From a virus, in the IMG/VR virus record IMGVR_UViG_3300045988_173968: 64,000 nucleotides of DNA. One strand, given 5' to 3'. The notes below the pieces were generated by a model. The model was not told where the DNA came from. It made no database searches and saw nothing but the letters and a program-made list of their open reading frames with translations. Within the stretch, counting starts at the first letter, position 1. The number at the start of each line of letters is the position of its first letter. Shown one piece after another: positions 1-63,666 of this stretch. The translations under genes and the position numbers were made by a program.

Positions 1-89
1 CCTTTGTTATGTAAATTTAATTTTTAGGGACATAGTTGCGCCCCGCAGCGGTTAGCCACGGGGCTTGATTGTACTGTGCTGTTTACGGC

Positions 90-485
90 TTACTGGACAT
101 CGATGGCAGCCTGAACGGAAGCAACCTCAGCCTCGATCTCGGTGAGAGTAGTACCAAGAGTCTCCTCCAGAGCATTCATCTTCAGGATGATGGCACCGAA
201 CTTGTCCTCAGCGTAGGTTTTAGCCTCGGCGGCAGACATACCGGTGGGGATCATCTCGGTGTAGGTCGCGTAGCCATTCTCGTCGTGAGAAGCGCTTACG
301 AACACAACGCCATTCTTATTGGCGCTGGCAGTCTTAGTGCCAACATCAATGCTGAAAACGGGGTTCTTTTCTTTGTCGCGCAGAACCAGAGCATCGGGAC
401 GATACTTCTTAGTCTTACGCAGGGTCTCCAGCTTCAGGCCGGAAGTGAGTACGAGTGCGTCTCCATGGATAGTGATCTTAGTCAT
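90..485 (-). CDS. hypothetical protein (131 aa)
   Basis: ORF 90..515. Start refined to the ATG at 485, which is preceded by GAAAGGAG. TAA stop. Confidence 0.6.
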   Translation of the reverse strand: MTKITIHGDALVLTSGLKLETLRKTKKYRPDALVLRDKEKNPVFSIDVGTKTASANKNGVVFVSASHDENGYATYTEMIPTGMSAAEAKTYAEDKFGAIILKMNALEETLGTTLTEIEAEVASVQAAIDVQ

Positions 486-547
486 AGTTTGACTCCTTTC
501 GCCCATTTTGGGCATTAAAATTATTTATGTATAACCCTGTCTGGGTT

Positions 548-829
548 TTACAACGAAAGTATGTTCGAGAGCTGGTCAAAAAAATCTTCGTATGCAATTT
601 CAGGCTCTATGCAGTCAACATAAAAACGGCGGTTGATTTCCTTCGCTCCAGGGATATCACAACTCCATAAGCCTTCAAGATTGTGATTATCGAACATGAT
701 CGAAACACAATTCGACTTACATACTTCAACAACCTCACCAGCCTCTCCAATGAAATGACTTTCATCTAATCCGCTGTGTGGGTTTTTCTTAACAACAACC
801 ACTCTGTCGCCTACTTTGAATTTTGCCAT
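548..829 (-). CDS. small hypothetical protein (KFKVGDRVVVV, SH3-like beginning)
   Basis: ORF 548..835. The second ATG (829) has better spacing to GGAGGTG. ATGA overlap with the upstream gene. Confidence 0.55.
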   Translation of the reverse strand: MAKFKVGDRVVVVKKNPHSGLDESHFIGEAGEVVEVCKSNCVSIMFDNHNLEGLWSCDIPGAKEINRRFYVDCIEPEIAYEDFFDQLSNILSL

Positions 830-831
830 TA

Positions 832-1059
832 TCATTCACCTCCAAATAATTTTAGTAATTCTTTCTCGAATGTTGGTTGTTCTTCCTCTGGCAAAAGGAT
901 AAGTTCATCCTTTGCAATTTCGTCTGCGGTCGGCATATAACAGTCTGCAGAATATGCAAATGTCCCTTCACACCTATTCTTACACGCCAAGTAATCGCAA
1001 TTGTCAGGGTTGGCTGTTTCATTCTGACGGAATAGACAAAATTCATAAAAACAGTCCAT
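832..1059 (-). CDS. small Cys-rich protein ending FEKELLKLFGG-E
   Basis: ORF with GAGGAG RBS. C-terminal double-glycine tail shared with neighbouring genes. Confidence 0.6.
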   Translation of the reverse strand: MDCFYEFCLFRQNETANPDNCDYLACKNRCEGTFAYSADCYMPTADEIAKDELILLPEEEQPTFEKELLKLFGGE

Positions 1060-1193
1060 TACTCAAGCTCCTCTTTCATTTTTTCATACAATTCGCTAAA
1101 CCGCTTGCTCCACTTCCTTAGCCCGAAGAAAAAGCATACGCCCAGCACAATCCACAGACCGCTGGCGATGTTTATTAATAGATTATCCATCAT
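1059..1193 (-). CDS. 44-aa predicted membrane protein (MMDNLLINIASGLWIVLGVCFFFGL...)
   Basis: Manually translated; too short for the ORF track. Start and stop overlap the flanking genes (ATGATG / TAATG). One hydrophobic helix. Confidence 0.4.
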   Translation of the reverse strand: MMDNLLINIASGLWIVLGVCFFFGLRKWSKRFSELYEKMKEELE

Positions 1194-1537
1194 TCTACCT
1201 CCTGCATCCAAAATTTACGACGGCAATCAGAGCATATCCGGTTTGAACAATTTCCGTATCTATCCCGACAATCAGCAGAAATGAGTTTTGGGCATAGCAT
1301 CAAGCGCCCACATTTGTCAATTTCCGCCTCTGGATACTGTTCAAGAAACACGCTCTGCCTCGTCTTGCGTGGATGTGCAGCAGACCATTCCTCGACTATA
1401 GCAATCTGATCCGTAGCGTCCAGCGTTGATATGGTGGAAACCCCACAACCACCATTAGAAGCTGGGCACCCAGTACATTTATCACCAAAACTCTCGCACA
1501 TCCTGTTGCGTTCCTCAATAAATTTTACAACATCCAT
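1190..1537 (-). CDS. Cys-rich putative metal-binding protein (115 aa)
   Basis: ORF 1190..1567. Start refined to the ATG at 1537 after GGAGGA. Motifs CTGCP, CGxxxLC, CSDC. Confidence 0.6.
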   Translation of the reverse strand: MDVVKFIEERNRMCESFGDKCTGCPASNGGCGVSTISTLDATDQIAIVEEWSAAHPRKTRQSVFLEQYPEAEIDKCGRLMLCPKLISADCRDRYGNCSNRICSDCRRKFWMQEVE

Positions 1538-1675
1538 TGAATTTTCCTCCATTTGCACCCGTCGCACGCGCCATTATGTGCGTGTTTGTACTTCCCGCAG
1601 TATTGTCATAACTCGTTGATAAGCGCCTTGCGGTCTGACGCCAGCTACATTGAACTTTATCTCCCATAGAAAATT

Positions 1676-1981
1676 TCATTCGGTACTCCCTCCCAATAAT
1701 TTAAGAAGTTCGTCCTCAAAGGATTCTATTGGAGCAACTAACCGGATCTCATTTTCAAGAACCCAGCGGCAATTAGGATTATAAGCGTCAAGCTCCCAAG
1801 TGGACTCATAGGCATCCTCGAATGAGATGCAAAATTTTGCATTCAATATTCCATTAACATTTTCCGGTTCATTGAAATTAACATCAATAACAGTTCCAAC
1901 AGCGCCAATTAAATCGTCACACGCATAATCGTCGTATGCAATATTCTCAACAATTTCTACATTATCGCCTACTGAAAACAT
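1676..1981 (-). CDS. small hypothetical protein ending FEDELLKLLGG-STE
   Basis: ORF with AAGGAGG RBS. Carries the double-glycine tail. Confidence 0.65.
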   Translation of the reverse strand: MFSVGDNVEIVENIAYDDYACDDLIGAVGTVIDVNFNEPENVNGILNAKFCISFEDAYESTWELDAYNPNCRWVLENEIRLVAPIESFEDELLKLLGGSTE

Positions 1982-2079
1982 CTTCTTACCTCCTTTTCAA
2001 AAGTGGGGTTCTTCCCAGTCATGCACCCCTCGACTGCTTATTTGAAAGGAAAGGAGAAACACCATGAACAAGATGGTGT

Positions 2080-2129
2080 TGGGGGAAGGCTTGGGATTTG
2101 AACCCAACAATGCCTTTCGGCAACCTTCC
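2080..2129 (-). ncRNA. 50-nt tRNA-like minihelix: 7-bp acceptor stem, UGCC-GAAA-GGCA hairpin, canonical T arm, encoded CCA
   Basis: The reverse complement reads GGAAGGU-UGCCGAAAGGCA-UUG-UUGGG-UUCAAAU-CCCAA-GCCUUCC-C-CCA. There is no D arm or anticodon arm. Confidence 0.35.
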
Positions 2130-2246
2130 GTATAGAGGCGGCTGTTGCACGCTGCGCACACGCATCGAAACCGCTAATCAGGGACTGTGCAAGCACCATC
2201 CCTTGGAAGGCAAACCCTTTGACGCAACATTTAATTCTCACTTACT

Positions 2247-2333
2247 TGGCGGAGAGGATGGGATTCGAACCCATGGCTCTGACGAGTCACCGGTTTTCAA
2301 GACCGGCTCCTTAAACCGCTCGGACACCTCTCC
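2247..2333 (-). tRNA. tRNA-Ser (anticodon UGA), CCA encoded
   Basis: Hand-folded cloverleaf: acceptor GGAGAGG/CCUCUCC, anticodon loop CUUGAAA, long variable arm, T loop UUCGAAU. Confidence 0.9.
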
Positions 2334-2790
2334 AGGTCTAGCTGGTTTTCTTGTTTCTCTCAAACCAGCAAAGCATCTATCTACGCAAGTTCAAACCGTA
2401 GCCATTGGATGAACTTTTTCTCGACCCGCAGGGTTAGATGCTTTACCCCGCTTGAACATTTTCGCAGTCCCTAGCGCCTCACCACAAAGTCTTTACTCTG
2501 TGGAGAGGTCTGAGCGTTAGGCAAGCTGTGTACACTATTGGCCAATTTATGCCATGCAATTAGCACTCGCCCTGCGGAATCGTACCGCACCCTCATAAAC
2601 CGTACAGTATTAAGAATGGCCATTCCTACCCTCGGTGGTTTATGATTCGAACCTCGCTTTGCTGTACTGATGTAGTAATACGACTCGTGCCATCCAGCAG
2701 TTCACACGAGAAGTGTGGGTTGAAGATTTTTAATCGACCTTTTAGCTAGCTCTCACTTCTTGGATTAGCGCGACCCACAAATTGATATTT

Positions 2791-2859
2791 TGGTTTCGGG
2801 TGGACTTGAACCACCGACGCACTGGCTCCCAGCTGCTCTACCTCCTGAGCTACGAAACC
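2791..2859 (-). pseudogene. tRNA-like gene with a 3-nt (GAG) anticodon loop; 69 nt, no encoded CCA
   Basis: Acceptor GGUUUCG/CGAAACC, D arm GCUC/GAGC and T arm GGUGG-UUCAAGU-CCACC are all intact. The anticodon stem GCUGG/CCAGU closes only 3 nt. Confidence 0.5.
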
Positions 2860-2974
2860 ATATTTAATTGGACAGTCTTTCTGAATCTAGTGTGCGCATT
2901 GCGCCTTCATCTCTCTCCGCAACTGTCCGGGATGCGTCAAATCCATCCGCGTGGCTGTCCCGGGAACAGCTAAT

Positions 2975-3050
2975 TGGTACGCCATCAGGGATTCGAACCC
3001 CGAACTAGCCGGATATAAGCCGGATACTCTGACCGTTGAGTTAATGGCGC
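2975..3050 (-). tRNA. tRNA-Ile (anticodon UAU), CCA encoded
   Basis: Hand-folded. Anticodon loop CUUAUAU, T loop UUCGAAU, G1-U72 wobble, and one mismatch at the base of the anticodon stem. Confidence 0.75.
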
Positions 3051-3076
3051 ATTTAAGCAGGCAAGCCTTGGCACCT

Positions 3077-3589
3077 CTAAACGAGGTGCCGCCTGTTGGT
3101 TCGATATGTATTGATTTCTTCTTGAAGCTCGTCCATGATGTCGGTAAGGATCTCCACATAGTTTTCATCTTGGCAGTAGCGATAAGCCACATCTTCAAGT
3201 TTCGAACCTGTGTACTTCCAGGAATCTGGATTGTTGTATTCCAACAGCCCTTCCGCAATGAACCAGATACATTCTTCAACGGAGTCGAACGACCGGAAAC
3301 TGCCATCATATTGACGCCAACCTCCGATGTTATTTTTCTCCTTGAAGTAGGTTGATGTTCCCCATCCGCTCTCCAATCCGAATTTTGCAAGTAAGTACAG
3401 CGGGTTTATTCCGTAATACTTCCCTGTTTCGAGGATTGTCCAAGCATATGGGGACAGCCCTTCTCGAAGATTTGTCAGTACATACTCGAATTCTTCCAAT
3501 GTGTAGTCCGTTTCATCGGTAAAGACTTCGTACCCATACGCCGGAACTACTATCAGAAGCGCTAAGAGGATTGCAATGATTTTACGCAT
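3077..3589 (-). CDS. secreted peptidoglycan hydrolase (N-acetylglucosaminidase-type domain)
   Basis: Signal peptide MRKIIAILLALLIVVPAYG. Motif LAKFGLESGWGTS...NNIGG is typical of the glucosaminidase (FlgJ/LytD-like) domain. AGGAGG RBS. Stop codon is TAG. Confidence 0.75.
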   Translation of the reverse strand: MRKIIAILLALLIVVPAYGYEVFTDETDYTLEEFEYVLTNLREGLSPYAWTILETGKYYGINPLYLLAKFGLESGWGTSTYFKEKNNIGGWRQYDGSFRSFDSVEECIWFIAEGLLEYNNPDSWKYTGSKLEDVAYRYCQDENYVEILTDIMDELQEEINTYRTNRRHLV

Positions 3590-3621
3590 TTAATACCTCC
3601 TGAATTTTTGCCCTTGCGGGC

Positions 3622-3698
3622 TGGTCGGGATGACAGGATTTGAACCTGCGACCTCGTACTCCCAAGGCACGCGCTCTACCAAGCTGAGCCACATCCCG
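3622..3698 (-). tRNA. tRNA-Pro (anticodon UGG), CCA encoded
   Basis: Hand-folded: CGGGAUG acceptor, anticodon loop CUUGGGA, T loop UUCAAAU. Confidence 0.9.
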
Positions 3699-3869
3699 AT
3701 AAAGAAAGAGCCTGCGGTTTTTCTACGCCACAGGCTCTTCCACAGAAAGGGGGCGATGCACATCCCTGCATCTGGGGCTCTTTTTCCGGCTTGCATTTCG
3801 CAAGTCGCCTCTCGCACGAGCAGTGCTAAGGTTATCTCGAAAGGAGGTGCGGGGGAATGACGACCCCCG

Positions 3870-3956
3870 TGGTGCCGCTGGCGGGATTTGAACCCGCACG
3901 ATGTTTCCATCGAGGGATTTTAAGTCCCTTTCGTCTGCCAATTCCGTCACAGCGGC
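3870..3956 (-). tRNA. tRNA-Leu (anticodon UAA), CCA encoded
   Basis: Hand-folded: anticodon arm AGGGA-CUUAAAA-UCCCU, long variable arm CGAUGGAAACAUCG, T loop UUCAAAU. Confidence 0.9.
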
Positions 3957-3959
3957 ATT

Positions 3960-4424
3960 TTAATCATCTCTTCTTGCGCACTTCCCATCAACAAAGTGAT
4001 AATCTCCAGCATATGCACAATCAGCACAATCGTTTGTCTCGTCACCGCCGAGAGGGCAAAGAAGATTCATAAGCTCATCCTCGAAATAGAATTTTTGTTT
4101 TAACTCCGGTCGATATTTCATAATGAAATCATCAACAGGGATTACATACCATCCATCGTAAAGTTCAGTTTTCTGATAATATTCCAAGTAACAAAACGAA
4201 CCCCACTTAAGGCTTCCATTTTGCATCACAAGGATAGCAACTGTATCACTGCTCATTCGACCGAATTGCTTCCCTATTGCCTCAATGTCACTCTTTGGGA
4301 AAACTCTGACTTCATGATCTTCAGACCAGTCATCTGGGCTCAAAACTCCGTCGAAGATTTCTACAAATTCCTCAACCGTAGTCTCTCGATTAAAGTAGAC
4401 GAGGAGCTTCTTTTCAATTTCCAT
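3960..4424 (-). CDS. paralog family protein; FEDELMNLLCPLGG motif followed by a 27-aa Cys-containing extension
   Basis: ORF with TAGGAGG RBS. The N-terminal domain resembles the next two genes. Confidence 0.65.
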   Translation of the reverse strand: MEIEKKLLVYFNRETTVEEFVEIFDGVLSPDDWSEDHEVRVFPKSDIEAIGKQFGRMSSDTVAILVMQNGSLKWGSFCYLEYYQKTELYDGWYVIPVDDFIMKYRPELKQKFYFEDELMNLLCPLGGDETNDCADCAYAGDYHFVDGKCARRDD

Positions 4425-4425
4425 T

Positions 4426-4788
4426 TCATCCTCCTATCAGTGCCATTAGTTCATCCTCAAAGATTATTGGTTCCCGTAGGTCGGGGCGAAAAACATCAAT
4501 GAATTCATCGATAGTATAGACAGGCGCTCTTTCATAGCCGTGCTCCTTATACCAAGACAGAGAGCAATAACCTTCCCATTTGATGGGATCATCATCTGAA
4601 ACAATAAGAGATATAGTATCATCCTCTCTTCCAGAATCAAGAATATTTCGAGCCACTACGGAATGTATATCGACTGCGAAGAACTTTTTCGTGCCATTTC
4701 TATCATAAACTTCTGACATCGCATCGAAGAATTCCGATTCTGTCATCTGTCTATCGAAGTGAACGAGAATTAACCCAGTTTTATCCAT
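4426..4788 (-). CDS. paralog family protein ending FEDELMALIGG
   Basis: ORF with TTAGGAGGG RBS. The protein ends exactly at GG. Confidence 0.65.
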   Translation of the reverse strand: MDKTGLILVHFDRQMTESEFFDAMSEVYDRNGTKKFFAVDIHSVVARNILDSGREDDTISLIVSDDDPIKWEGYCSLSWYKEHGYERAPVYTIDEFIDVFRPDLREPIIFEDELMALIGG

Positions 4789-4789
4789 T

Positions 4790-5110
4790 TTACCCTCCTA
4801 ATAGTTGCATCAGCTCGTCCTCGAATGGCTCAGACTCTTTAATGCCAAGAAGCTCAAGGAACTGATCAAGGTTGATTTCAGTGTAACCTGATATATAATG
4901 GCTTCCCTGTGGAGTATGATAAAATTCATAGTTGGCATATCCAAGACATTTGAAATTACCATTAAACCGAAGCCCTACGCCTCTTTTAAACTTTGCTACA
5001 ACATAATCATTACTACTAAAGAGAGATCTGTCTATTTTTACACCAGCAAACATTATTTCGTCTATAAGGTTCTCGTCGAGAGCCTCGTGCAAGACCAAAA
5101 GATATTTCAT
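4790..5110 (-). CDS. paralog family protein ending FEDELMQLLGG
   Basis: ORF 4790..5140. Start refined to MKYLLVL (ATGA overlap with the upstream gene). Confidence 0.6.
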   Translation of the reverse strand: MKYLLVLHEALDENLIDEIMFAGVKIDRSLFSSNDYVVAKFKRGVGLRFNGNFKCLGYANYEFYHTPQGSHYISGYTEINLDQFLELLGIKESEPFEDELMQLLGG

Positions 5111-5301
5111 CCCAACCCCTCCATGATAATCCGCCTGCAAATCTGATCGACTTCAATTTCGGAATTGCAAGCGTACAGTTTCTCTTTGTCTTTCTTTTTG
5201 AGTTTAATGCGGAAGTCCTTGATCATTTCGAGCTTTTTTTCTATGTACTTCTCCTTATCGGAAGTGATTTTTATGACCTTGAAATGCACCTTTAATTGCA
5301 C
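5107..5301 (-). CDS. small Lys-rich hypothetical protein
   Basis: ORF from the track. Start is uncertain (GTG at 5301 or 5289). Overlaps the 3' end of the next small ORF. Confidence 0.35.
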   Translation of the reverse strand: MQLKVHFKVIKITSDKEKYIEKKLEMIKDFRIKLKKKDKEKLYACNSEIEVDQICRRIIMEGLG

Positions 5302-5383
5302 CTCCTATGCAGGTAATGATGATTGTTGCCATTAAGACAATCAGCGGAGAAGCCGCGATTAGAATTACATCAGTCATCGGCAT
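5255..5383 (-). CDS. small membrane protein (MPMTDVILIAASPLIVLMATIIITCIGG...)
   Basis: Internal ATG of ORF 5255..5479, preceded by GAGGAAATGGGG. One hydrophobic helix. Confidence 0.35.
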   Translation of the reverse strand: MPMTDVILIAASPLIVLMATIIITCIGGAIKGAFQGHKNHFR

Positions 5384-5510
5384 ACCCCATTTCCTCAAGG
5401 TCTTTGCGGGCTTCTTTGGTATCATCGGCGCTGAAAAGGAACACGCCGTCGCCGTACACTTCCACATGCCCTTGAACATATTTCATTGTGATGCTCATCG
5501 CAAAGCCTCC

Positions 5511-5810
5511 TTATTCAAATGTGTAGCCCCATCCCGCAAGATTGAGAAATCCATCGTGAGGATTTTCAAATACATCAAGCTTAACCGGCTGTTGACACAG
5601 GAATGTGCCTGCATGATTAACAAATACTCTCTTTTCGAGTGTGCAGAAGTCGCCCTCATCTCCATGCCGTATATCATACGCATACCAGCCATCTGGAACT
5701 GTGTTTTTATCTACACGGCAGTTTGTGAAGAAGCCTCTTACCTCACGCTCTGTGTCCGGCGCTACTACAAAGGCTTGGTTTTCCTCCAGCGCCTCTTGAA
5801 ATGTGATCAT
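5511..5810 (-). CDS. hypothetical protein (99 aa; DGWYAYDIRHGDEGD motif)
   Basis: ORF with GGGAGGA RBS. Confidence 0.6.
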   Translation of the reverse strand: MITFQEALEENQAFVVAPDTEREVRGFFTNCRVDKNTVPDGWYAYDIRHGDEGDFCTLEKRVFVNHAGTFLCQQPVKLDVFENPHDGFLNLAGWGYTFE

Positions 5811-5813
5811 TTT

Positions 5814-6008
5814 TTAGTCCTCCCAGTTGTCCAAGAATGTTTCCCCGTCAATGAAATACCACTCATCGGCAACAAGAATATCTTCTTCATCGACGCCGTT
5901 TTCTATGAGAGATCGAACTCGAGCTGTCGCTTTTTCGGTGAATTCCACCCGTTCTACCCGGAGGTGGTTATCCTCCGGGTCTGGGTAGATGATGTAGTAG
6001 GTGTACAT
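5814..6008 (-). CDS. hypothetical acidic protein (64 aa)
   Basis: ORF from the track. TAATG overlap with the upstream gene. Confidence 0.5.
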   Translation of the reverse strand: MYTYYIIYPDPEDNHLRVERVEFTEKATARVRSLIENGVDEEDILVADEWYFIDGETFLDNWED

Positions 6009-6235
6009 TACGCTTTCATCACCGCCTTAAACATGTAAGGGGTGCGCTCTCCGAGCAGACCACGATAGTCGCTCTCCTTATAGACACCATTCTCCCATTT
6101 TTCCTCACGCTGCTTGCGCTCGGCTTCGGTGAAAGGGGTCATGTTCAGACCGTAGCAGAACTTGCTGTTGTTGCCGGCAGCTTTTTCTGCCTTTTCCTTA
6201 AGGATAATTTCTGCGTTGCGGGTTCTCTTTTCCAT
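6008..6235 (-). CDS. hypothetical protein (75 aa)
   Basis: ORF 6008..6250. Start refined to MEKRTRN, after GGAGGT. Confidence 0.5.
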   Translation of the reverse strand: MEKRTRNAEIILKEKAEKAAGNNSKFCYGLNMTPFTEAERKQREEKWENGVYKESDYRGLLGERTPYMFKAVMKA

Positions 6236-6558
6236 TATGCGTACCTCCATGTGTTCAAAAAATGTGTGTATTTCTCGATGAGATCATCGGGAATGCTTAC
6301 GAAATCTTCTTCGCCCAGCCCACAGATAAAGACCGAACCGAAGATGATGTCCTTTACTGCTCCGGCTTCATCAGCCATCATCAGGCAGGCTTTGCTGCCA
6401 TCGAATTTTCCCTCCTCATTGCAGATGAGTGCAACGGGGTCGTCAAACGGGAATATTGCCTCTATGGGGCCTTTTACGATTTCCTGCATAGATTTGAGGC
6501 TGCCGTCGACCTCAACGATCTGGGGCTTTCTATGCGGCTCTAACGCAAGAATTTTCAC
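6235..6558 (-). CDS. hypothetical protein (107 aa), resembles the DUF3846-type proteins of phages and conjugative elements
   Basis: GTG start after GAGGAGGAG. Family assignment is from memory of the motif pattern only. Confidence 0.55.
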   Translation of the reverse strand: MKILALEPHRKPQIVEVDGSLKSMQEIVKGPIEAIFPFDDPVALICNEEGKFDGSKACLMMADEAGAVKDIIFGSVFICGLGEEDFVSIPDDLIEKYTHFLNTWRYA

Positions 6559-7345: not shown

Positions 7346-7516
7346 GATTTTTACCTCCATACAGACTATTGCTCCAAACAGGCTTAATAGCATTTTTGCC
7401 ATCTGGAATGCTTGCTTTCAGCCGCTTTTACGCCTAAACAATTGGCATAAAAGCGTTGCCCGATACCCGGCACGAGGAGCCATCAAGCATGGGTATCTTT
7501 TCGCTCATTAAGGGAT

Positions 7517-15435: not shown

Positions 15436-18243
15436 GTGAGCTTAACTGACCAGATAAATATCTATGCCGTAGATTCTGACGCATTCTACAACGAGGAAGA
15501 ACGGGATATCAGTATTCAGCTCAATAATCTGCGCACCAGAAAGAAGAATTTGAAAGAGGAGTTACGAATTGCTGAGCAGTTTCTGGGTGGTTCCCTTCCG
15601 GAGAAGTCATAGGCTACCCGATATCGTGAGATATACCGGTTGCGTAAGGAAATTGAGATTGACCCGCCTACACAGGATGTGGTTGAGATTCTCAATGAGC
15701 AAATTGCTACCTTGACCCCTATTATCACGGGGCTCAAAAACGAGCTTAAGGATAAACTGGAGAGCCATTCCGGAATTCGCGCCCTTGACCCTCGTGCGCT
15801 CTCCCCTAAAAATGTTATATCGGTGTTTGAATCCGCCATGACAAGAGTGTTTGGCTTCGAGAAGGATCAGTTATACGATGATGTAATTGTTGTTCGGGCG
15901 TATTACTACGAGGTGCTGAAAGACATCATGCGGGATGGATTTCTTCACAATGGTGAGCGGTATGTGGTGTTTACGGCATCCGCAGGACAGATCCGAACCA
16001 AAAGAACCGTCTTTGTTAAGGAATCTCTGCTTGAGAAGCATCGTCTGACACTCATGTGTGGGCTTACGGTTGACCATATCAATGAGCTGGGCGGTGTCAA
16101 TGTCAATAAGTATCTGGCTTATTTGGCTTTGAGTAACTCTGCCACTGATATTTGGGAAGGGTTCGATATTGATAAGTCCATCGTTGTAGAAGACTTTGAG
16201 ACGCTCGTAAATGGCACCGTAGACTACATTGATGGTACTACATATGAAATCACTCGCAAGGAAATGGGCGTTCCCATAACGCACACAGATGGCTGTGGAA
16301 TGATGCTGCCGAGCATCAGTTGGAAGAACATGATGGTGCGGCTCCCATGGGTAAAGGGATTGCTCGCCTCTTTCGACTTCAAGAAGTTCATTCGAGAGGC
16401 TAATGAGAGAGAACCGGAGATAAACCATGGTCTCGTCAGAGATATCTACGGCAAAGAATGGGATATTCTGCGAGACGATATCCGTTGTATTTTCACTAAG
16501 AGTCAGTTCAAAATGTAGAAATATTACGACAATTGGCAGGATTATGTCGATAAATTTAAACATTATGGGTGTCTGGCGTGTAAGTGCAACGAAGAAGAGA
16601 GCTTCATCCCCAACGCCAAACTGAACTACCAGATGTTGCAGACTCTGACCGATATATCAGATGAGGAGTTGCGGGCTCTCGCTGAAAAGTCAGTCAAAAA
16701 GCTGGACAACATTGCAGCGGATAAGGATACCATGCTCCGAGTATTTGGTGTTAAGGACAGCAACCGAGAGAAGAATCACTTTCAGAAATGTGTCGGTATC
16801 TATAATGAACTTCTCTGCCAGGAGTATTCCAAGGAAACCTTAAAACAGATAAAAAAGAGCCTCGTCAATGACTATCGGGCGGGAAAATTTGATGTTGATG
16901 GCAAATATCTGTTTATTATTCCGGATCTGTACGCATTTTGCGAGCATCTGTTCCTTGGCATTGAAGTGCCGCAGGGGCTGCTTAAGGACGGTGAAGTGTC
17001 GGCAAGAGTGTTCGCCAAGCGGGAGAAGCTGGATTGCCTGCGGAGTCCACACCTCTACCGCGAGCATGGTGTTCGCCGTAATGTGGTCAACGAGGATACG
17101 AAGAAGTGGTTCCGTACTGATGCTCTTTATACAAGCTCTTATGATTTAATTAGCAAATTATTGCAATTCGATTGCGACGGAGATAAGAGCTTAGTGGTCG
17201 CTGACGAACTATTTGTCAGCATAGCAGAACGAAACATGCATGGTATTGTCCCCCTCTATTACGAGATGGCGAAGGCGGGACAGATGCATATTGACAATAT
17301 GAAGATCTACGATGGTTTGCAGGCTGCCTACAGCGGTGGCAATATCGGTGAGATCAGCAATACTATTACGAAGATTTGGAACAGTGGCGAAATGACGCAG
17401 GATAAACTTGATGTGATTAAGTGGTTATGCTTCGAGAATAATGCAACAATTGATTACGCAAAAACATTGTAGAAGCCCATCCGCCCACATTATGTTGATA
17501 AAGCCATTAAATCCTGCGCCAACTATAAGCCACCCCAATTCTTTATTTACGCTAAAGATAAAACCCAGGAACAAGTAGAACCACGCAATGACAGCATCGT
17601 CAACAAGTTGTTTGACATTATCCCCGATAAGAGAATGCGTTTTACGGCTGCCAACCTCGGGAAGTTCGATTATAAGGTACTGATGCGAAATCCCATCGTT
17701 TCTATTGACCCTCGTGTCATTGAGAAATTCAAAGATCTTGACGCCAGAAAGAACTTGTCTTTGTCTTACGGTTCCAACGAGGAGAACTATGCATTCTTCC
17801 GTACAACCGTTAGATGTGAGCTGTATGCTATTAACCCGAATGTGAACGCCGTCTGTGATATGCTTGTGGCTCACTTCTTCCGGGACAAGAAAAGTAAGAG
17901 CCTTAATACATTCTGGCTGTGCTATGGTGACATAGTGTTCCAGAATATTCGAAACAACATCGAGAAAGATTACATACAGTGCAGTTGCTGCGGCAAACGG
18001 TTCTGGAGAACCTCTTATAAGAACCAGATTTGCGAGGCATGCATTGAGAAGATGTCTAATCCAAATCTGCCAAAACCAATTAGATACAAGGTAAAGGTCT
18101 GCATTGATTGTGGTAAAGAGTTCAAGACAGTTTCTACCGCAAGACGAGCTTGTCGTTGCACCGAGTGTAGCAAAATACGGAAGAGGAAAAATACAGCTAA
18201 GCGCGTATCACTCTTCCGGAGCAAAGAAAGTAACGCTTTATAA
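15436..18243 (+). CDS. single-subunit two-barrel RNA polymerase (YonO / cellular RdRP-like) with in-frame TAGs at 15610, 16516 and 17470
   Basis: GTG start after GGGAGGGTGA. Motifs YVVFTASAGQIRTKRTVFV, LRSPHLYREHG and the catalytic FDCDGDKSLV (DxDGD). Four track ORFs lie in one frame, separated only by TAG. C-terminal CxxC zinc ribbons. Confidence 0.75.
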
Positions 18244-47933: not shown

Positions 47934-50900
47934 GTGGCTGATAATTATAAGATAAGACTTATTGGTGAGTTGGACGCTGAAACAACCACCTCGAATATAA
48001 AAAAACAACTCGAAGGAATAAAGATTAAGGCAAACATTCTTGAAGGCGGTTTTACCGCGGAGAGTATAGAGAAGCTTTCCGAGCAAATCTCCAATGCAGT
48101 AGATGCTTATCAGAAGAAAAGCGAAAAATCTCCTATACGGGTTCCAATTAAAATCTCCAAGGTTGATGGAAGTGAAGCTATTGCTGTATTCAAGAATCAG
48201 CTTAGCAAGGAGATCAATGCTCTGAACATTGCCTCTCCTGGTACGCACGATGTGCATTTGGAAATCAAGGATTCCGAGTAGGGCAAAGAAAAGGCTGCAG
48301 CTCTTAAACAAGAAGCAAATGAGCAAGCGGCTAAGGCTGCCGAAAAAGAATTAAAGGCTCATCAGGCTACAAATACTGCTTTGCAAAATGAGATTGATAA
48401 GCTCAAGGAGAAGTTCCAAGAGCAGCAAAAAGCTAACGCAGAAGCACTGGCTGAAGAGCGTCAGGCGAGAAAAAAGGCTGAAGCCGAAGCGGCTGTGACA
48501 AACGAGAAGAAAAAGCAGCAGGAAGCTGAAGTTGCCGCTCAAGCCGCCCAAAAAAGAACTAACAAACTGATTCAGGATTCTATAAGTTTACTTAATAAAC
48601 AGACTGTTTATTTCAAGAAAAACCCCGTTGTATATAACGGAAACATACTTGACGCTAACCGTTGGAAATACCAGTTAAACAATATCATCAATGGCAAGGT
48701 TACAAATCCTGATGAAGCGGCAGATATCGTTTCAAAATATCGTCAGTGGTTTGACGGTATGAAAACATCCGCTATTGAAGCTGGCATAACTGGCGCAACG
48801 GCCATCGATAAGATAAAGCAGGCTATTACTAAGTTTGGCAGTTGGAACATCATGACTTTTGCCATCACCAAACTTAAGCGCGGCCTTGTTGATATCGTTA
48901 AAAATGTCAAAGAGCTTGATGCTGCGATGACGGAGCTGCAAAAAGTTACGGATGAAACATCCAACCGATACGAGCGCTTTGTTAAGGACGCTGCTGCTTC
49001 CGCCAAGCAACTTGGTACTACCCTTGTCGGTATCGTAAACGCTACGAGCACATTTGCTCGACTTGGCTACAATATAGATGATGCTTCTGAATATGCAAAA
49101 ATCGCAACCGTCTATAAGAATGTTGGCGACTCTATTGAAAGTATCGATGATGCTGCAAGCAGTCTTGTCTCTACGATGAAAGCATTTAAGCTTGAGAGTA
49201 TTAGTGACGCTTGGGGTATTATTGATCTGTTTAACGAGGTTGGCAACTCCTTTGCGACTACATCCGGAGACATCGGCGAAGCGATGAAGCGCTCTGCCTC
49301 TGCTTTGTATGAAGCGGGCAATACGATTGAGCAGTCTGTTGGTTTGTATACTGCAGCGCAAACGATTGTACAGGATGCTGATGTAGTTGGTACGGCATTA
49401 AAGACTCTTTCTATGCGCTTGCGTGGCACAAAAACTGATCTTGAAGCCGCTGGACTTGATGTCGATGGGCTTGCATCTTCTACATCTGCGTTAAGAGGTG
49501 AGATCCTTGCCCTTACCAATGTGGATATTATGAAGAGCGCTACCGAGTTCAAGTCTACATATGAAATGTTGCAGGATTTGAGCAAGGTATGGGATAAGCT
49601 CGAAGAAACCTCTCGTGCCAGAGTTCTTGAACTCGTTGCCGGTAAGCGAATGGCTTCCACAGTTGCGGCCATTATCAATAATTTCGACATTGCTGAAGAA
49701 GTTACTGGATTGAACTATTCCGGCAGTGCCTTAAAAGAAAATGAGAAATACCTCGAAAGTATCAATGGACGCATTGATGTACTTAAAGCTTCTTATGAGG
49801 AACTTTCTCAAACCGTGCTCGATAGTGGTCTTGTTAAAGCATTTGTAGATATCGGGAATGCAGCTATCAATGCATTTAACTGGCTTTATAGCGCAGAAAT
49901 TAGTTCTGACTCTCCGATTGGCAAATTAGGCAACATTTCAAAAAGTGTATATGAAATCAAAGATGCTATAACTTCCTTAATCCCATCCTTAGATCATGTT
50001 TCGAAGATAAAGCTGTGGGGCATCTTGCCAACAATCATTCCTGCTATTACTGCCATTTCCAATGTACTAAGCAAAGGAAATGATAACGGGTATGTACAGG
50101 TAAAAAGAGAAGGAACATCATTAAGGCTTGCTGGCACTGATCGCTGGGCGAACGAAAAGGAAGCACTATCAGAAAAAGACTACCTTGACTTCTTAGGGTT
50201 TGGAGATTATACAAAGGCTGAAAAGTATCTCAAGAAAAATAAAGATAAATTTGACGGGTTATTTAAAGAGATTCTCACATGGAAATACGATTCGACTGAT
50301 CTTGATCCAGACACGCTACTTCCAAAGAAAAAATTCAAACCCCTCTTTGAAACTGACCCTCAAAAATATCAGGAGAAGATAAAGCAATTTGGCGCTTATG
50401 CTGATGCGGCTGATCAAATTGCCCATAGCACTGAGCAAGCAGCGGAAGCTACTGATATGATGGGCGAAGCCGTTGTTCGAGACACCTTTAAATATAAAGC
50501 TTTTACTGTTGCTGCTAAAGCGGCCAATGTAGCTTTATCAACGCTTAAGAGTCTCGCTATCTCATTTGCTATTCAGCTCGCTATAAACGCGGTAGTTGCT
50601 CTTGTCGATGAACTTAAAAATGGCATGAGCAACGCTGTTGAACGAGTGAGCGATGCCAAATCTGCTCTTGAAAGTGTTGACGAAAAAATCTCCGATACAA
50701 CAAAAGAACTTGAAGAGGCTCAGAGCAGGATTAAAGATATTCAAAATCTTGGAAAACTGTCAATTACGGATGCATCTGATCTCCGTAATCTTCAGTTATC
50801 CAATGCTCAACTTCTTGTACAGCTTTCGTTGCTCGAAAAGGAAAAAGAGCTTAAAGAAGCTGAACTTAATGCTGGCAAGAATGCCGTTTGGAATCGTTTT

Positions 50901-53150
50901 CAAAATTCACGGTGGGATGGATATTACACAAGACCCCAGGAAAAGTTAACTCAAGAAGAATATGTTAACTACATGCGTGATCAGCTTCCTAAAAAATACG
51001 AGCGTATTGCGGCACTCAATCAACTGGCTTCCCAAAGAGATTTGACCGCCGCCGAGAAGGGCGAGCTAAAATTATTGCAGTCCGGGATTGAAAAGGCACA
51101 AACCAATCTTCTTGAAATTGCTGAAAACCTGAAGGATATTGACAGTGAGCAGTCTAACGCTGTCATTGCAATGATTGCATGGCTGACTTCCAACAGTAAA
51201 ACACAGCTCGAATTGTTTAATACCTACGCTGGTTCTATATCTGAGGGAGTACAGAAATCGTTGCTTGATATGGCATCGGCTGGAACCTTAACGGAAGAAA
51301 GTCTTAAAAGGGTTGTCCCCGAGCAAACGCTCGAAGCCATGGTTGCCCTTTGCGGCTCTATTGAGAATGTTATCTATCAATATGAGAACATGGCAAATAG
51401 CGGAGCGGATGTTACTGGCTCTCTGTATGCACAGGCTCGTGAGCTTGAATCTATCAACGAAGATATGGATTCCTTGCAAAGCTCATATAAAACGCTCGTC
51501 GCGGCCATAAGCGAATATAATGCAAATGGCTACATGACTGTTGATACATTGCAGTCTTTCCTGTCCTTGTCTGACGACTATATTGAGGCTCTCACGCTTG
51601 AGAATGGACAGCTTGTTCTGAACACTGATAGTATCATCGCCTTGGCAAATGCTCGACTCGACGAAATGCTTGCGAAGAAGTGGAATCAGACTGTCGAAGT
51701 TATTGATACTCTCATTAAAGAGAAGAGTAGTACCGAAGAGACTACGGAGTCTATTCAAGATAAGACATACGCCATTGAAGATATGACGGATGCCGCTCTT
51801 GAGAATTACATTGTGGAACAGCTTGGGCTTAAGAGTAACCAAGAAATCAACAGTGAACTTCGTGCGGCTATCGACTCATTTAATATCTATAAGGCGATGA
51901 TTGATTCTACTCGAAAAGGTCTTGGACGGTACACCAATACCACTTTCGGAGCCGCAGACGCAACAAAATCTCTAACCGATGCAATTAAGGATCAATATGA
52001 TAAGCTACTTGATAAGGAGAAAGCCCGTATCAATGCTGCCAAAGAAGTTCTCGAGGATAGAAAGAAAGATCTTCAAGATGAACTTGATGCCCTTGAGGAG
52101 CAGTACGAAGCCGAGGATAAACTCCTCGAATTGCAAAAGGCAAAAGACCGTTATGAAGCGGCTAAGGCGAACAAGAATACTCGGCTTTATACGGCTGATA
52201 AGGGATGGCAGTGGGTATCCGATCCACAAGAACTTGAGGACGCAAAGAGTAGCCTTGATGAACTCCACAAAGAGATGGAGCGAGATGAGGCTAAGAAGGC
52301 TATTCAAGACCAAATCGACGCTATCGATAACCTAATTGATAAGTGTGACGATGCGCTGGATATTCTCGGGCAAGACTGGGATGATTACATTGAGCATTTG
52401 AATCTTGTCGCTGAGATGCAAGGTCTTACTATGGATCAGTTGGGCGATCAGGTCGAAGGATTTGTTGACCGCGCAATAGACCTCATCAGGCAGTATTCCA
52501 ATGCCTTGAAAGAAGCAGCGGCAGCTGAAAGTATGCTCGGTAATGGCAATGGTAAAAAGAATGCCGGAGATAACGACAAGCCAGTAGAAAAGGATTTCTG
52601 GAAAGATACAAAGGCTGGCACAATAATCTCTGATGTAATTGCGAAAAGCAAGCAGCAGGAGAATTGGTATCGTAATAATCTGCCGAATTCCATTACTAAC
52701 CCATTCCCGAACGGAGTAAGTGGTGTATCGGGCACAAAGATTGCAGGTAAGATAGTAGATGATATTGCTAAGGGAAAGCGCGCTCCGCTCGCTACCGGCG
52801 TTAAGTATGTTTCCTCATCCGGTATTTACAATGTCGATGATGGAAACGGCCCAGAAATCATCGCTCGTCGCGGCAGATATACTCGACTTGAAGTTGGCGA
52901 TGGTGTTGTACCAGCAGATTTAACTGCTCGGTTATTTGCTCTTGCCAAATCTCCAGAGGAATACATTATGCCTAAAGTAAGCGGACTGTTTGCTATTTTG
53001 GCTGCCAATTTGATTGGCCGTCCCGGTCAGGTACAGCAATCTGCTCAACAGCCTATCTATATCGCTAAGGTAGAAGTTACTGGTGTTGAGGATGTTGATG
53101 GGTTCCTTGACGAATTAACTAAAATCGTAAATCGTAAGAGAAAGGTGTGA
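47934..53150 (+). CDS. tape measure protein (about 1738 codons) with an in-frame TAG at 48279
   Basis: GTG start after AAGAGGTGG. ORFs 47934..48281 and 48381..53150 are in the same frame, separated only by TAG. Very long coiled-coil protein. Confidence 0.8.
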
Positions 53151-58826: not shown

Positions 58827-59318
58827 ATGGATATCGCAAAGAAAGCATGGACAACTGACGGCTATCTCGGCCACCAGGAACAAATGCGGAACATCCCATA
58901 CGGTAAATATACGATAGGTGAAAAGGGCTGCGGATTTATCGCAGCCTTTAATGCATTAAAGGCGAGTGGGAATCCGCAAGATATTGATTCTGTATACAAT
59001 TGGTTTAACAAAACTCTATTTGCGGGAGCGCGGTGGGGTACAAACATATTCCAAATGGTCGCATTTTTAATTAAGCACAAAGCGTTTAAGGGGTTTAAGC
59101 TTACAAAGAAAGGCTATTCAGATTTAAATGTTGGCATTCTTCTTTATAATGTCGGCGGTTAGTACCATTGGGTGGCTTACTACAAGTACCCTAACTCTGT
59201 TGACAAATTCCGTTTCTTAAATGCAGGGTTCTGCTATAGCAATCGCAGATATAGTATTGATAAATTCGTTTCGGAAGAATGCAAAGGATGGCTTCGTTAT
59301 GTAATAAAGGTTGCGTGA
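58827..59318 (+). CDS. papain-fold cysteine peptidase (C39-like) with an in-frame TAG at 59160
   Basis: ATG after TAAGGAGG. GEKGCGFIAAFNALKASG (Cys) and GG-TAG-YHWVAYYK (His). The frame continues to the TGA at 59318. Confidence 0.55.
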
Positions 59319-61280: not shown

Positions 61281-61913
61281 ATGGAAAATTGTCTTGGAGC
61301 GCTTAAAGTCCTTATTGACCATATTGATGATTCATATGTTTCGGTGACTGATGAATGGAAGCGCCAAACTGGAGGTGCTCCAGTAAATCTCAAAAGAACT
61401 ATGGTCTCTTGCATTAGTGTTGATAGTCCAATTTATAATTCTGTTATTGAATATGCTGGAATGCTGAATGATCAATGCAAGGACATTGCGTTGCAGTTGG
61501 CGCTTGTTTGTTCGTGTGAAGTTACCACAAGAGTCAAAACCCAGAATTCAATAGAGTTTAAAATCCAAAACTACAAAACAGAAGCCCACGAATTTGGGAA
61601 AGTGCAAATAAACAGATGCATCAATGATTTGTTTGGAGTAAGAATCTTCTTAAAGCCACCGATGGATTTTGATGACATTTTTAGCTTCATAAGAGAGACC
61701 TATGGCGATAAATACCGTATTCTTGACTCGTCGAAACAAGACTACAGGGCGATTCATCTTTACTTTAAAAAAGACAATTATTCTTTTCCTTGGGAGTTAC
61801 AGATTTGGAACGAGTGTGACTCGGAAAGCAACTTAATATCTCACAAGAAATATAAACAAGAATATACTGCATGGGAGAAGAAGAATAAGAAAGGAGGAAC
61901 ATTGGATGATTAG
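61281..61913 (+). CDS. RelA/SpoT-homolog small alarmone synthetase-type toxin (toxSAS)
   Basis: Synthetase-fold motifs RVKTQNSIEFK, NDLFGVRIFL, DYRAIHLYF, PWELQIWN, HKKYK. Stop codon is TAG. Overlaps the next gene by 8 nt. Confidence 0.7.
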   Translation: MENCLGALKVLIDHIDDSYVSVTDEWKRQTGGAPVNLKRTMVSCISVDSPIYNSVIEYAGMLNDQCKDIALQLALVCSCEVTTRVKTQNSIEFKIQNYKTEAHEFGKVQINRCINDLFGVRIFLKPPMDFDDIFSFIRETYGDKYRILDSSKQDYRAIHLYFKKDNYSFPWELQIWNECDSESNLISHKKYKQEYTAWEKKNKKGGTLDD

Positions 61914-62667
61914 GCATTACATTATAATGAGCAGTTCTTATACTGAAGGAACTCGCATCGCGCTGGATATTGTAGAGGAAAGTAAGCTTAATAAAGAATC
62001 AATCGCTGGTATCTTAAAAGAGATTAAAGAAACCTGCGGGAAAGATGTCCCTCTTTCTACACACCTTATTTGCACTAGCTCTAAAGACTGGAGTTCTGTT
62101 CAGCGATATGACCCTTTCTTTGAGGATGTTAAACGTATTCCAACTGTGTCTGCTTTTGCTGAGACAATCAAAAAAAGTCGTACTCTGACAGGACTTGATG
62201 TTGCAGTATACATTCTCTCAAGGATTAAATGCACTCACTTGTCCTTGGAAAAGCTGGTCTATTTTTCATACGCTGATTATCTATGTGAAACTGGGAAACG
62301 GTTGTTTGAAGATCAAATTTACGCTTTTGAGCATGGCCCAATAGTAGATAGCGTATATGAAGCCTATAAACGAAGCGGAAGCAAGCGCATAGATCCTCCA
62401 ACGATTGAAACAGACAGACCAGTTACCAGCACAGCCGAAGAGATGCCATCGAAAAGCAGAATACTTTTCGCAGTTGATGGATTAGAGAAACTGCGGTCGA
62501 TTGAGCAAACCATTAACAGATATGGCAACTATGCTCCTTGGCAGCTCGTTTCTATAACTCACAGAGAGGGTTCCCCATGGTCGTATGTAGATAGCTCAAA
62601 AGAGTATCAGCCTATTCCGGATAGGCTGATACTTAAGCATCACCATGTTGAAACCGAAGATATTTAA
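61906..62667 (+). CDS. panA: Panacea (DUF4065)-domain antitoxin
   Basis: ATG 9 nt after GGAGG. LEKLVYFSYADYLCETGKRLFEDQIYAFEHGPIVDSVYEAYK and ITHREGSPW match the Panacea/SocA-like domain pattern. Confidence 0.7.
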   Translation: MIRHYIIMSSSYTEGTRIALDIVEESKLNKESIAGILKEIKETCGKDVPLSTHLICTSSKDWSSVQRYDPFFEDVKRIPTVSAFAETIKKSRTLTGLDVAVYILSRIKCTHLSLEKLVYFSYADYLCETGKRLFEDQIYAFEHGPIVDSVYEAYKRSGSKRIDPPTIETDRPVTSTAEEMPSKSRILFAVDGLEKLRSIEQTINRYGNYAPWQLVSITHREGSPWSYVDSSKEYQPIPDRLILKHHHVETEDI

Positions 62668-63008: not shown

Positions 63009-63011
63009 AAT

Positions 63012-63110
63012 AATAGAGGTTGCGAAGCCTACCAAAATCGCTTTAATAGAGGTTGCGAAGCCTACCAAAATCGCTTTAATAGAGGTTGCGAAGCCTACCA
63101 AAATCGCTTT
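63012..63110 (+). ncRNA. toxI: ToxI-like antitoxin RNA: three tandem 33-nt repeats (AATAGAGGTTGCGAAGCCTACCAAAATCGCTTT)
   Basis: Three exact tandem copies between the promoter and an internal terminator, directly upstream of the ToxN/AbiQ-like gene. Each repeat contains AAAAU. Confidence 0.75.
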
Positions 63111-63112
63111 AA

Positions 63113-63145
63113 TGGTCACTTCTAGATGATGTGACCATTATTTTT
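63113..63145 (+). terminator. intra-operon terminator between the repeats and the toxin gene
   Basis: UGGUCAC-loop-GUGACCA followed by UUAUUUUU. Confidence 0.7.
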
Positions 63146-63156
63146 AGGAGATTGCA

Positions 63157-63666
63157 ATGCAAAATTGGGTAGTTGTTGACGAAAAATATCTTAATTATCT
63201 TCGAGATATTGAGCCAAAGATTCCGTACTCTGACTATGGTGAAAACAAATTTAAGCCATTTTTTGGGGAGTTGTTTGAGATTGGGGATTTGGTTTACATA
63301 ACTCAAGTCTCACACCCCAAAGAACGGCACCATACTATGAATAATGCCGTTGACTTTATAAAACTATATGACGAAACCAGTCTTCTTGCAGTCGTAAACC
63401 TTAATTATATGTTCCCCGTTCCGAAACATACTTTAAACAAACTTGAATATGACAGTATTTCCAATCTGCGTCATTTTCAATCCTTGGACGAAAAGAATAA
63501 ATATATAGCTCTTCTAAAAAGAGAACTACGAGAAATTAACAAAATAGATATAGAGAATAAATCGAAAAAAGTTTATGGAATAAAGAAATCTTTCCCCGAT
63601 AGTATTTTGGCAAAAAGGTGTTTGGATTTTGAAGCACTTGAAAAAGCTGCCATGAACTACGAATGA
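63157..63666 (+). CDS. toxN: ToxN/AbiQ-family type III toxin endoribonuclease
   Basis: The N-terminus VVVDEKYLNYLRDIEPKIPYSDY...KPFFG...YITQVSHPKERH resembles the ToxN/AbiQ N-terminus. 169 aa. AGGAG RBS. Confidence 0.7.
   Translation: MQNWVVVDEKYLNYLRDIEPKIPYSDYGENKFKPFFGELFEIGDLVYITQVSHPKERHHTMNNAVDFIKLYDETSLLAVVNLNYMFPVPKHTLNKLEYDSISNLRHFQSLDEKNKYIALLKRELREINKIDIENKSKKVYGIKKSFPDSILAKRCLDFEALEKAAMNYE

Follow-up and report, generated by a model that had tools for sequence, protein, structure and literature searches.

A selected C-terminal motif on different small proteins of an uncultured phage, with a terminal double glycine that is largely a translated Shine-Dalgarno site

Double-glycine leaders are N-terminal acidic amphipathic helices that precede a cargo, need GG, GA or GS at their end and have ELxxIxGG as their consensus core, and in the adaptor SspB a C-terminal peptide binds ClpX. 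In phage T4, the proteins gp43, gp55 and gp33 carry interchangeable acidic and hydrophobic C-terminal tails on flexible linkers, all of which bind one hub, gp45 (PMC2988020), and the Firmicutes phage SPO1 encodes Gp53, a ClpCP adaptor-like protein (doi 10.1101/569657). A C-terminal GG, with or without a few residues after it, is found along with ThiF/E1 and JAB proteins in the Bil and Bub systems and in Cap2/Cap3 of the cyclic oligonucleotide-based antiphage signaling system (CBASS) (PMC10097602, PMC10557695). Here we analysed a 64,000-nucleotide stretch, referred to as the window, of the IMG/VR virus record IMGVR_UViG_3300045988_173968, in which five small genes, referred to as A to E, encode proteins that carry the same short tail at or near the C-terminus, followed in A, B, D and E by Gly-Gly.

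The T4 gp45-binding tails are the closest precedent, as they are likewise an interchangeable acidic/hydrophobic C-terminal motif on a linker. The phage tail differs from them in its sequence, FExELxxLL, and in its carriers, which are accessory proteins of 75–154 amino acids (aa) from at least 11 families per genome; no gene for a clamp or another hub was identified in the DNA examined, and the partner is one that we infer. The layout of SspB and SPO1 Gp53, with a domain, a flexible linker and a short docking peptide, is comparable as well, and Gp53 gives a precedent from a Gram-positive phage; there is, however, no sequence similarity. In contrast to the Bil, Bub and CBASS proteins, the domains in front of the tail (heads) are not beta-grasp folds, the tail is predicted to be helical, its GG is variable, and the ThiF/E1 and JAB cassette that relatives carry in the same operon has a small candidate substrate of its own. 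Double-glycine leaders share with the tail an acidic amphipathic helix and the register E(-8), L(-7), hydrophobic(-4), G-G, but the tail is C-terminal and free of cargo, and its GG is dispensable across families.

The tail motif and its carriers

In the six-frame translation of the window, FE[DK]EL occurs exactly five times, each time at the C-terminal end of a minus-strand open reading frame (ORF) between 832 and 5110, against an expectation of 0.056 from composition and a mean of 0.04 in first-order Markov simulations (P ~4e-9). These ORFs and their tails lie at the positions given in an earlier, sequence-only reading of this DNA (the first-pass annotation), and its register of Glu at -8, hydrophobic residues at -7 (here Leu) and -4, and GG was recovered (Table 1). 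Conservation centres on F-[ES]-x-[EQD]-L-x-x-[LV]-[LIF], 9 residues that follow a Pro/Glu-rich linker. When a loose version of the motif was searched at the C-termini of 607 ORFs, 30 of the 31 matches belonged to tail families, the other being a 1589-aa ORF (48381-53150), and inside proteins it matched 2 of 1402 interior 24-aa windows. A sixth, degenerate tail (..YEDFFDQLSNILSL) was detected on the ORF at 548-835. Neither proteins A–E nor the isolated tails matched any family in Pfam, PHROGs, NCBIfam or PADLOC. The first-pass annotation had described the proteins as early, a label that derives from their position; promoters and terminators, scanned for as well, gave no information on when the genes are expressed.

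The heads are of two or three types, where the first-pass annotation had proposed at least three: C, D and E have an alpha/beta head, B has an SH3-like barrel, and the head of A is Cys-rich. Over all tail families, the alpha/beta type comprises C, D, E and G–K, and the SH3-like type B, A', F and the 548-835 protein. C is a paralog of D along its entire length (blastp 5e-16), and the relationship of E to this pair extends across its C-terminal ~50 aa, so the five tails are not five independent events, whereas A and B have only the tail in common with C, D and E. In the AlphaFold2 (AF2) model of D, built on a 59-sequence alignment with a predicted local distance difference test score (pLDDT) of 81.8, the alpha/beta domain (residues 1-100) reaches 80-92, the linker 68 and the tail helix (111-118) ~55; in the model of B, an SH3-like barrel is followed by a linker and then by a helix (88-96, pLDDT ~57-62). 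The tail is therefore predicted, from these models, as a loosely attached helix. Foldseek searches of the D model against PDB and BFVD gave nothing significant, and for the B model just generic SH3-like matches and a weak likeness to the Lon specificity factor 5ycq (E 0.017) were obtained.

Conservation is concentrated in the tail. Among orthologs, the entropy of the head against that of the last ~30 residues was 1.08 versus 0.15 bits for E, 0.73 versus 0.33 for D and 0.61 versus 0.03 for C. The Leu codons of the tail differ between families (CTG, CTT, CTA, TTA and TTG), those for Phe, Glu and Asp vary too, and synonymous sites are saturated between families; since the residues stay constant, the constraint lies in the protein sequence. 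Conservation of the whole tail at the RNA level was ruled out by the same synonymous saturation, and a recent neutral duplication of one 3' segment, which had been put forward as a way to explain the similarity away, does not agree with Leu codons that differ from family to family. The tail is kept in all full-length D orthologs, in all 45 E orthologs and in B homologs, where FEDEL[LFH]K[LI][LF] is present in 36 of 36 and GG in 35 of 36; one D ortholog has lost its stop codon and ends GGRNGN. The tail is a real, clade-specific and selected short linear motif on proteins with different N-terminal domains.

In IMG/VR, a degenerate DNA pattern written for the tail matched this phage clade alone, apart from five chance matches, and a hidden Markov model of C/D/E searched against 1.84 billion representatives retrieved only 14 clusters, all from this clade. 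The carriers are uncultured ~105 kb phages, and the relatives carry at least 11 tail families (A, A', B, C, D, E, F, G, H, I, J and K) with three head types. No close relative was found among cultured phages by megablast of window positions 1-6000 or tblastn of the terminase, and a scan of GTDB genomes with D gave one spurious match and assigned no host.

Several of these genes are chimeras. The last ~25 aa of A correspond to the 3' end of an SH3-type gene, A', which is intact in relatives; in two of them (L003 and L014), B is followed by A' as a complete gene of the SH3+tail type. In the window, the first 11 codons of A' survive in the ORF at 1515-1679, which shows no coding-type substitution pattern beyond them, and the last ~25 codons of A' have become joined to the new Cys-rich head found in A. 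Four B homologs end in ..KLFGGE, as A does, and are thus B-body/A-tail chimeras; in one relative (L029), the gene directly after B is the one that comes after A in the window. The crossover maps to AAATTATT(G/T)GGAGG, and the intervening ~0.85 kb is deleted. Another protein, P0024, is a D/C chimera. To judge from these arrangements, the tail appears to have spread by paralogy within head families together with recombination or head replacement that kept the 3' end with its coupling junction. The earlier proposal of a transplanted motif, rather than simple paralogy, therefore stands for A and between head classes, but much of the repetition is ordinary paralogy.

Table 1. Tail-bearing genes, their tails and associated features in the window and in relatives
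Feature	Position	Strand	Description
SH3-like small protein	548..835	-	Probable start 829; degenerate tail YEDFFDQLSNILSL at 551-592
Gene A	832..1059	-	75 aa; Cys-rich head, linker LLPEEEQPT, tail FEKELLKLFGG-E; C-terminus ..PTFEKELLKLFGGE
Tail of A, FEKELLKLFGG	838..870	-	GGAGGT 838-843, 8 nt upstream of the next gene's ATG 827-829
Remnant ORF	1515..1679	-	54 aa; begins with the N-terminal 11 aa of A' (SH3+tail gene), MKFSMGDKVQC
Gene B	1676..1981	-	101 aa; SH3-like beta-barrel head, linker RLVAPIES, tail FEDELLKLLGG-STE; C-terminus ..ESFEDELLKLLGGSTE
Tail of B	1688..1720	-	GGAGGG 1688-1693, Shine-Dalgarno site 8 nt upstream of ATG 1677-1679
Gene C	3960..4424	-	154 aa; alpha/beta head, internal core tail FEDELMNLL (4059-4085), then Cys-rich module
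Cys-rich module of C, CPLGGDETNDCADC...C	3963..4058	-	Fused behind the core tail
Gene D	4426..4788	-	120 aa; alpha/beta head, linker 101-110, tail helix 111-118; C-terminus ..IIFEDELMALIGG
Tail of D, FEDELMALIGG	4429..4461	-	GGAGGA 4429-4434, Shine-Dalgarno site for C (ATG 4422-4424)
Gene E	4790..5110	-	106 aa; hypervariable head, invariant C-terminal ~30 aa; C-terminus ..EPFEDELMQLLGG
Tail of E, FEDELMQLLGG	4793..4825	-	GGAGGG 4793-4798, Shine-Dalgarno site for D (ATG 4786-4788)
ThiF/E1 and JAB cassette	L019 14660-18931; likewise L020, L023-L027		In relatives; beyond position 1 of the window
Reverse transcriptase gene region	L019 18932-19540, reverse transcriptase from 19540; L020 19204-20352		~600 nt non-coding stretch upstream of the reverse transcriptase

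The double glycine and the ribosome-binding site of the next gene

The two Gly codons read GGAGGT in A, GGAGGG in B, GGAGGA in D and GGAGGG in E, and they lie 4-9 nt before the next minus-strand ATG, which in all four abuts or overlaps the stop codon (TAAAATG, TGAAATG or ATGA). The Gly-Gly is thus the Shine-Dalgarno site of the downstream gene, and the residues past it (0, 1 or 3 in the window, 0-4 over the families) come from translation of the spacer that separates this site from the start codon; in B, where stop and next start overlap as ATGA, this spacer is STE. We compared about 30 loci of related uncultured phages, and every tail that ends in GG there has GGAGGN, or GGGGGT in family G, at the ribosome-site position.

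Where the ribosome site is elsewhere, the GGAGG-like core is off the end of the ORF. In families J and K it lies 3' of the stop, and GG is absent: J ends ..ALLGI, followed by taa and GGAGGGAATGGTATG, and K ends ..TLLDN, followed by taa and GGAGGATGTGAAATG, with GGAGG and then the next ATG after the stop in both. Family I reads GGGGGTG as Gly-Val, and one D variant has GGAGAA and hence a Gly-Glu ending. The 548-835 protein has neither Gly-Gly nor a translationally coupled downstream gene in the window; in relatives, its family has no coupled downstream gene either and ends ..NILSL. P0117, a divergent member of the C/D/E superfamily, ends FESELEAILNAGRD and keeps FxxELxxLL with no GG, as do families J and K and the 548-835 family. 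The double glycine, which the first-pass annotation had placed at the core of the motif's function, does not hold up as such: it tracks the position of the ribosome site and is missing from families I, J and K, the 548-835 family, P0117 and the Gly-Glu variant.

Downstream of gene C there is a tRNA-Leu gene and no coupled gene, and the protein continues from ..FYFEDELMNLL into CPLGGDETNDCADCAYAGDYHFVDGKCARRDD. Its CPLGG, earlier read as a tail with an inserted CP, is the beginning of an independent Cys-rich module, CPLGGDETNDCxxC..C, which is also found without the tail; CPLGGDETNDC is present in C-type orthologs that have no FEDEL, and behind an unrelated head in one relative. The tail of C is therefore internal, so the core motif need not be terminal. 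The module itself, CPLGGDETNDCADCxYxxDYHFxDGKC with four Cys (window 3963-4058, minus strand; L018 7956-8225), is mobile, standing behind different heads, and is probably a small zinc-binding domain.

We conclude that the 'double glycine' feature is largely a translated ribosome-binding site rather than a processing signal. It is plausible that Gly is mildly preferred as a helix cap in the protein itself, since LLG recurs in families I and J. As with embedded Shine-Dalgarno sites and dual coding in general, the GGAGG lies 4-9 nt before an ATG, stop and start overlap or abut, and the last codons are dictated by it; eleven other junctions in the window are built alike. The tail genes differ from the other embedded-site genes in that they always use the GGA-GGN frame (Gly-Gly), whereas the others mostly use GAG-GAx: Glu-Glu was read in 7 of 10 other window genes with an embedded GGAGG and Gly-Gly in 1 of 10. 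The one non-tail gene with Gly-Gly encodes an alarmone synthetase that ends KGGTLDD. A literature search for a Shine-Dalgarno-driven bias toward C-terminal GG, or for this motif, returned nothing specific.

Possible roles of the tail

The explanation that we favour, with a probability of about 0.55, is that the tail is a linker-tethered docking helix for one shared partner and that its GG is the Shine-Dalgarno site of the downstream gene. Two overlapping signals, one at the protein and one at the RNA level, would then have been taken for one. The protein signal would be an acidic amphipathic helix on a Pro/Glu-rich linker, attached to heads of two or three folds; its F, L and LL would plug into a hydrophobic groove of one common partner, a phage or host hub, and the heads would supply different activities or targets. 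The RNA signal would be the GGAGG of the tightly coupled downstream gene, read as GGA-GGN, and the first Gly would at most double as the helix cap. As is to be expected of a docking peptide, the same short hydrophobic/acidic motif stands at the C-termini of unrelated domains, the linkers differ between families, and the motif is more conserved than the body.

Some specific partners or targets were considered. The beta-clamp motif QLxLF was rejected because the register does not fit; a PIP-box-like register (ExxLxxLL; PIP, PCNA-interacting peptide) is present in the tail, in DNA where no clamp gene was seen. A membrane-targeting helix of the MinD ..LFGG type was ruled out by the acidic polar face. 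Regarding a Pup-like GGE, only A ends GGE, by way of the spacer, and a Pup system was judged unlikely for the presumed Firmicutes-type host.

Several points weigh against the docking explanation. No partner was identified, and docking is proposed from architecture and conservation. The tail genes use the Gly-Gly frame in four of four cases, against one in ten of the others (Fisher p=0.005, for tails that share ancestry and events that are not independent), and this bias could reflect a preference for Gly-Gly in the protein as well. The correlation between GG and the ribosome site is equally expected if a required GG had been co-opted as the ribosome site. Furthermore, a ThiF/E1 and JAB cassette is present in the same operon in relatives, the tail fits the ELxxLxGG register of double-glycine leaders, and the motif is confined to one phage clade, with little phylogenetic depth.

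Past window position 1, the operon of every relative examined goes on with genes for a 75-aa protein, then a 450-aa protein, next a 308-aa JAB protein, a 225-aa ThiF/E1 protein and a retron-type reverse transcriptase, after which come more tail families. The cassette begins ~0.1 kb beyond position 1, with JAB and ThiF ~3-4 kb beyond it; ThiF and the JAB protein were found in 10 relatives, and tail-bearing genes lie on both sides of the cassette. The 308-aa protein has an intact JAMM motif, HxHx7Sx2D (HSHVNMGTSPSGED), and weak PADLOC JAB matches, and the 225-aa protein belongs to the ThiF family (PF00899, 3.8e-24), with Uba1, MccB, ThiF, MoeB and Cap2 as its best PDB matches. In the latter, NLANQ replaces NLxRQ, which puts Asn at the position of the conserved Arg that we take to be the E1 Arg finger. 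The 75-aa protein ends ..CIAKTSNA and, on a reading of its sequence, is suspected to be beta-grasp-like and putatively ubiquitin-like. As a whole, the cassette would be a phage-borne ubiquitin-like or peptide-adenylation system. The reverse transcriptase belongs to the retron St85 family of NCBIfam (4e-54) and is RT_II-A in PADLOC, and the ~600 nt stretch in front of it could encode an msr/msd RNA.

With these genes at hand, the likeness to ubiquitin-like modifiers that the first-pass annotation had raised can be put concretely: the tails would be ubiquitin-like substrates or handles, whose C-terminal Gly is adenylated by ThiF/E1 after JAB has trimmed 1-4 residues, and they would be conjugated or act as decoys for a host E1 of the Bil, Bub or CBASS type. 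The idea gains from the presence of the cassette in the operon of all relatives, flanked on both sides by tail genes, and from tails that end in GG or GG plus 1-4 residues, resembling ubiquitin-like precursors. It is weakened by heads that AF2 models as alpha/beta (D) and SH3-like barrel (B) instead of beta-grasp, by a tail that is predicted helical rather than extended, and by a GG that is explained by the Shine-Dalgarno overlap and is missing from C as well as from the families and variants named above. The cassette moreover has its own adjacent 75-aa candidate substrate, its ThiF carries NLANQ and not NLxRQ, and it lies outside the window. We consider this quite unlikely, and equally so a version in which FxxELxxLL is the recruitment handle of a phage ubiquitin-like machine (75-aa, 450-aa, JAB and ThiF/E1 proteins) with heads that bind different host (defence) proteins and a constant tail that delivers these to the conjugating or deconjugating enzymes, or in which the GG tails are E1 substrates or decoys. 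Less likely still is mimicry of a double-glycine leader, with the tail docking in the C39 domain of a host peptidase-containing ATP-binding transporter (PCAT), or in a phage Cys peptidase, as a decoy, inhibitor or processed tag. The residues E(-8), L(-7), hydrophobic(-4), G(-2) and G(-1) of A, B, D and E do equal the leader core, and the register is found in F, G and H too, but the motif is inverted in position, at the C-terminus with 0-4 residues and no cargo past the GG (in C a Cys module follows the core), and GG is not conserved across the tail families. The tails match no NCBIfam leader model, there is no PCAT in the window and none is known for the host, and 6-11 different heads on a decoy would have no evident reason. 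As for the phage peptidase, the ORF at 58827-59162 had been called C39-like, and its GCGFIAAFNAL does resemble papain-like Cys peptidases; beyond this motif it has no match in Pfam, PHROG, NCBIfam or PDB, even at E<=10. This ORF (plus strand, 111 aa) adjoins an M23 peptidase gene and ends ..NVGG, encoded by GGCGGT, which is not a Shine-Dalgarno sequence.

Perhaps the tail could instead be a C-terminal degron or a protease-adaptor tether that directs the proteins, or targets bound to them, to a AAA+ protease of the host (ClpCP, ClpXP, Lon or FtsH) and thereby times their degradation. A hydrophobic C-terminal peptide that is exposed on a linker and shared by many accessory proteins would suit this, SPO1 Gp53 is a precedent for a phage ClpCP adaptor-like protein, and the weak resemblance of the B model to a Lon specificity factor points the same way. 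However, a classical degron is read through its terminal residues and free carboxylate, and here the termini are as varied as GG, GGE, GGSTE, GGASV, GGDKNG, GI, GV, DN and SL, with the motif internal in C; we hold a degron to be unlikely, and the adaptor-tether version is a special case of docking and not a true rival to it. An amphipathic helix on many paralogs co-expressed from one operon might also serve homo- or hetero-oligomerisation among the tail proteins, or fold back on its own head. This seems improbable for nine residues, too short for a stable coiled coil, that recur as the same helix on unrelated head folds and that AF2 does not pack confidently on the head of D or B. Finally, the tail might have no function as a protein and be a recombination site, the 3' end and coupling junction being kept as a cassette when heads change. 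Natural deletions and chimeras with crossovers inside tail-coding DNA are in line with this, as is the replacement of the head of A with retention of the 3' end of A'. Amino acids that are kept while synonymous sites are saturated between families, a tail that varies less than any other part of the C, D and E orthologs, and a motif retained both where the ribosome site is outside the ORF (J and K) and where the motif itself is internal (C) make this very unlikely.

Other features of the window, and implications

Upstream of the tail genes, LPD28 (5511-5810) and DUF3846 (6235-6558) domain proteins are encoded at 5511-6558 on the minus strand; such domains are typical of polyvalent or anti-restriction-type accessory regions in phages and conjugative elements. 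Between B and C lie five tRNA genes (2247-3956, minus strand), namely Ser-TGA, one at 2791-2859 detected by Rfam only, Ile-TAT, Pro-TGG and Leu-TAA, and within this cluster a glucosaminidase gene with a signal peptide (3077-3589) and, between tRNA genes, a RAGATH-36-like RNA (2451-2592, minus strand; 55.5 bits against a gathering score of 70, E 3.6e-9). A match to the hepatitis delta virus (HDV)-like ribozyme family of F. prausnitzii at 7410-7497 (minus strand; 38.9 bits against a gathering score of 44, E 2e-4) might point to a host of the Clostridia or Faecalibacterium type.

On the plus strand, three ORFs of 292, 246 and 211 aa at 15640-18243 match successive parts of the 847-position phrog_8308 and represent a split or interrupted gene, in which no Rfam intron was detected at the gathering threshold. 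The alarmone synthetase mentioned above is a RelA/SpoT-like small synthetase which, together with the SocA/Panacea-domain protein that follows it, makes up a toxSAS-type toxin-antitoxin pair (61281-62667, plus strand). At 63011-63666 (plus strand), a ToxN gene (PF13958, 3e-43) follows 3.1 perfect copies of a 33-nt repeat (63011-63113), which together look like a ToxIN-like type III toxin-antitoxin system on a phage.

The tail also carries a caution, since C-terminal GG, EE or RR 'motifs' in tight Firmicutes-type operons can arise from nothing more than translation of a Shine-Dalgarno sequence. The phage E1/JAB cassette deserves study in itself, and if the tail were its recruitment handle, the tail proteins would be a viral family of substrate adaptors in bacteria. 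If docking is true, abundant uncultured ~105 kb phages of gut metagenomes would carry one 9-residue handle on a dozen fast-evolving small proteins, a natural case of head and tail module shuffling among accessory genes, and the tail would be a peptide bait for finding a central hub of the phage-host interaction.

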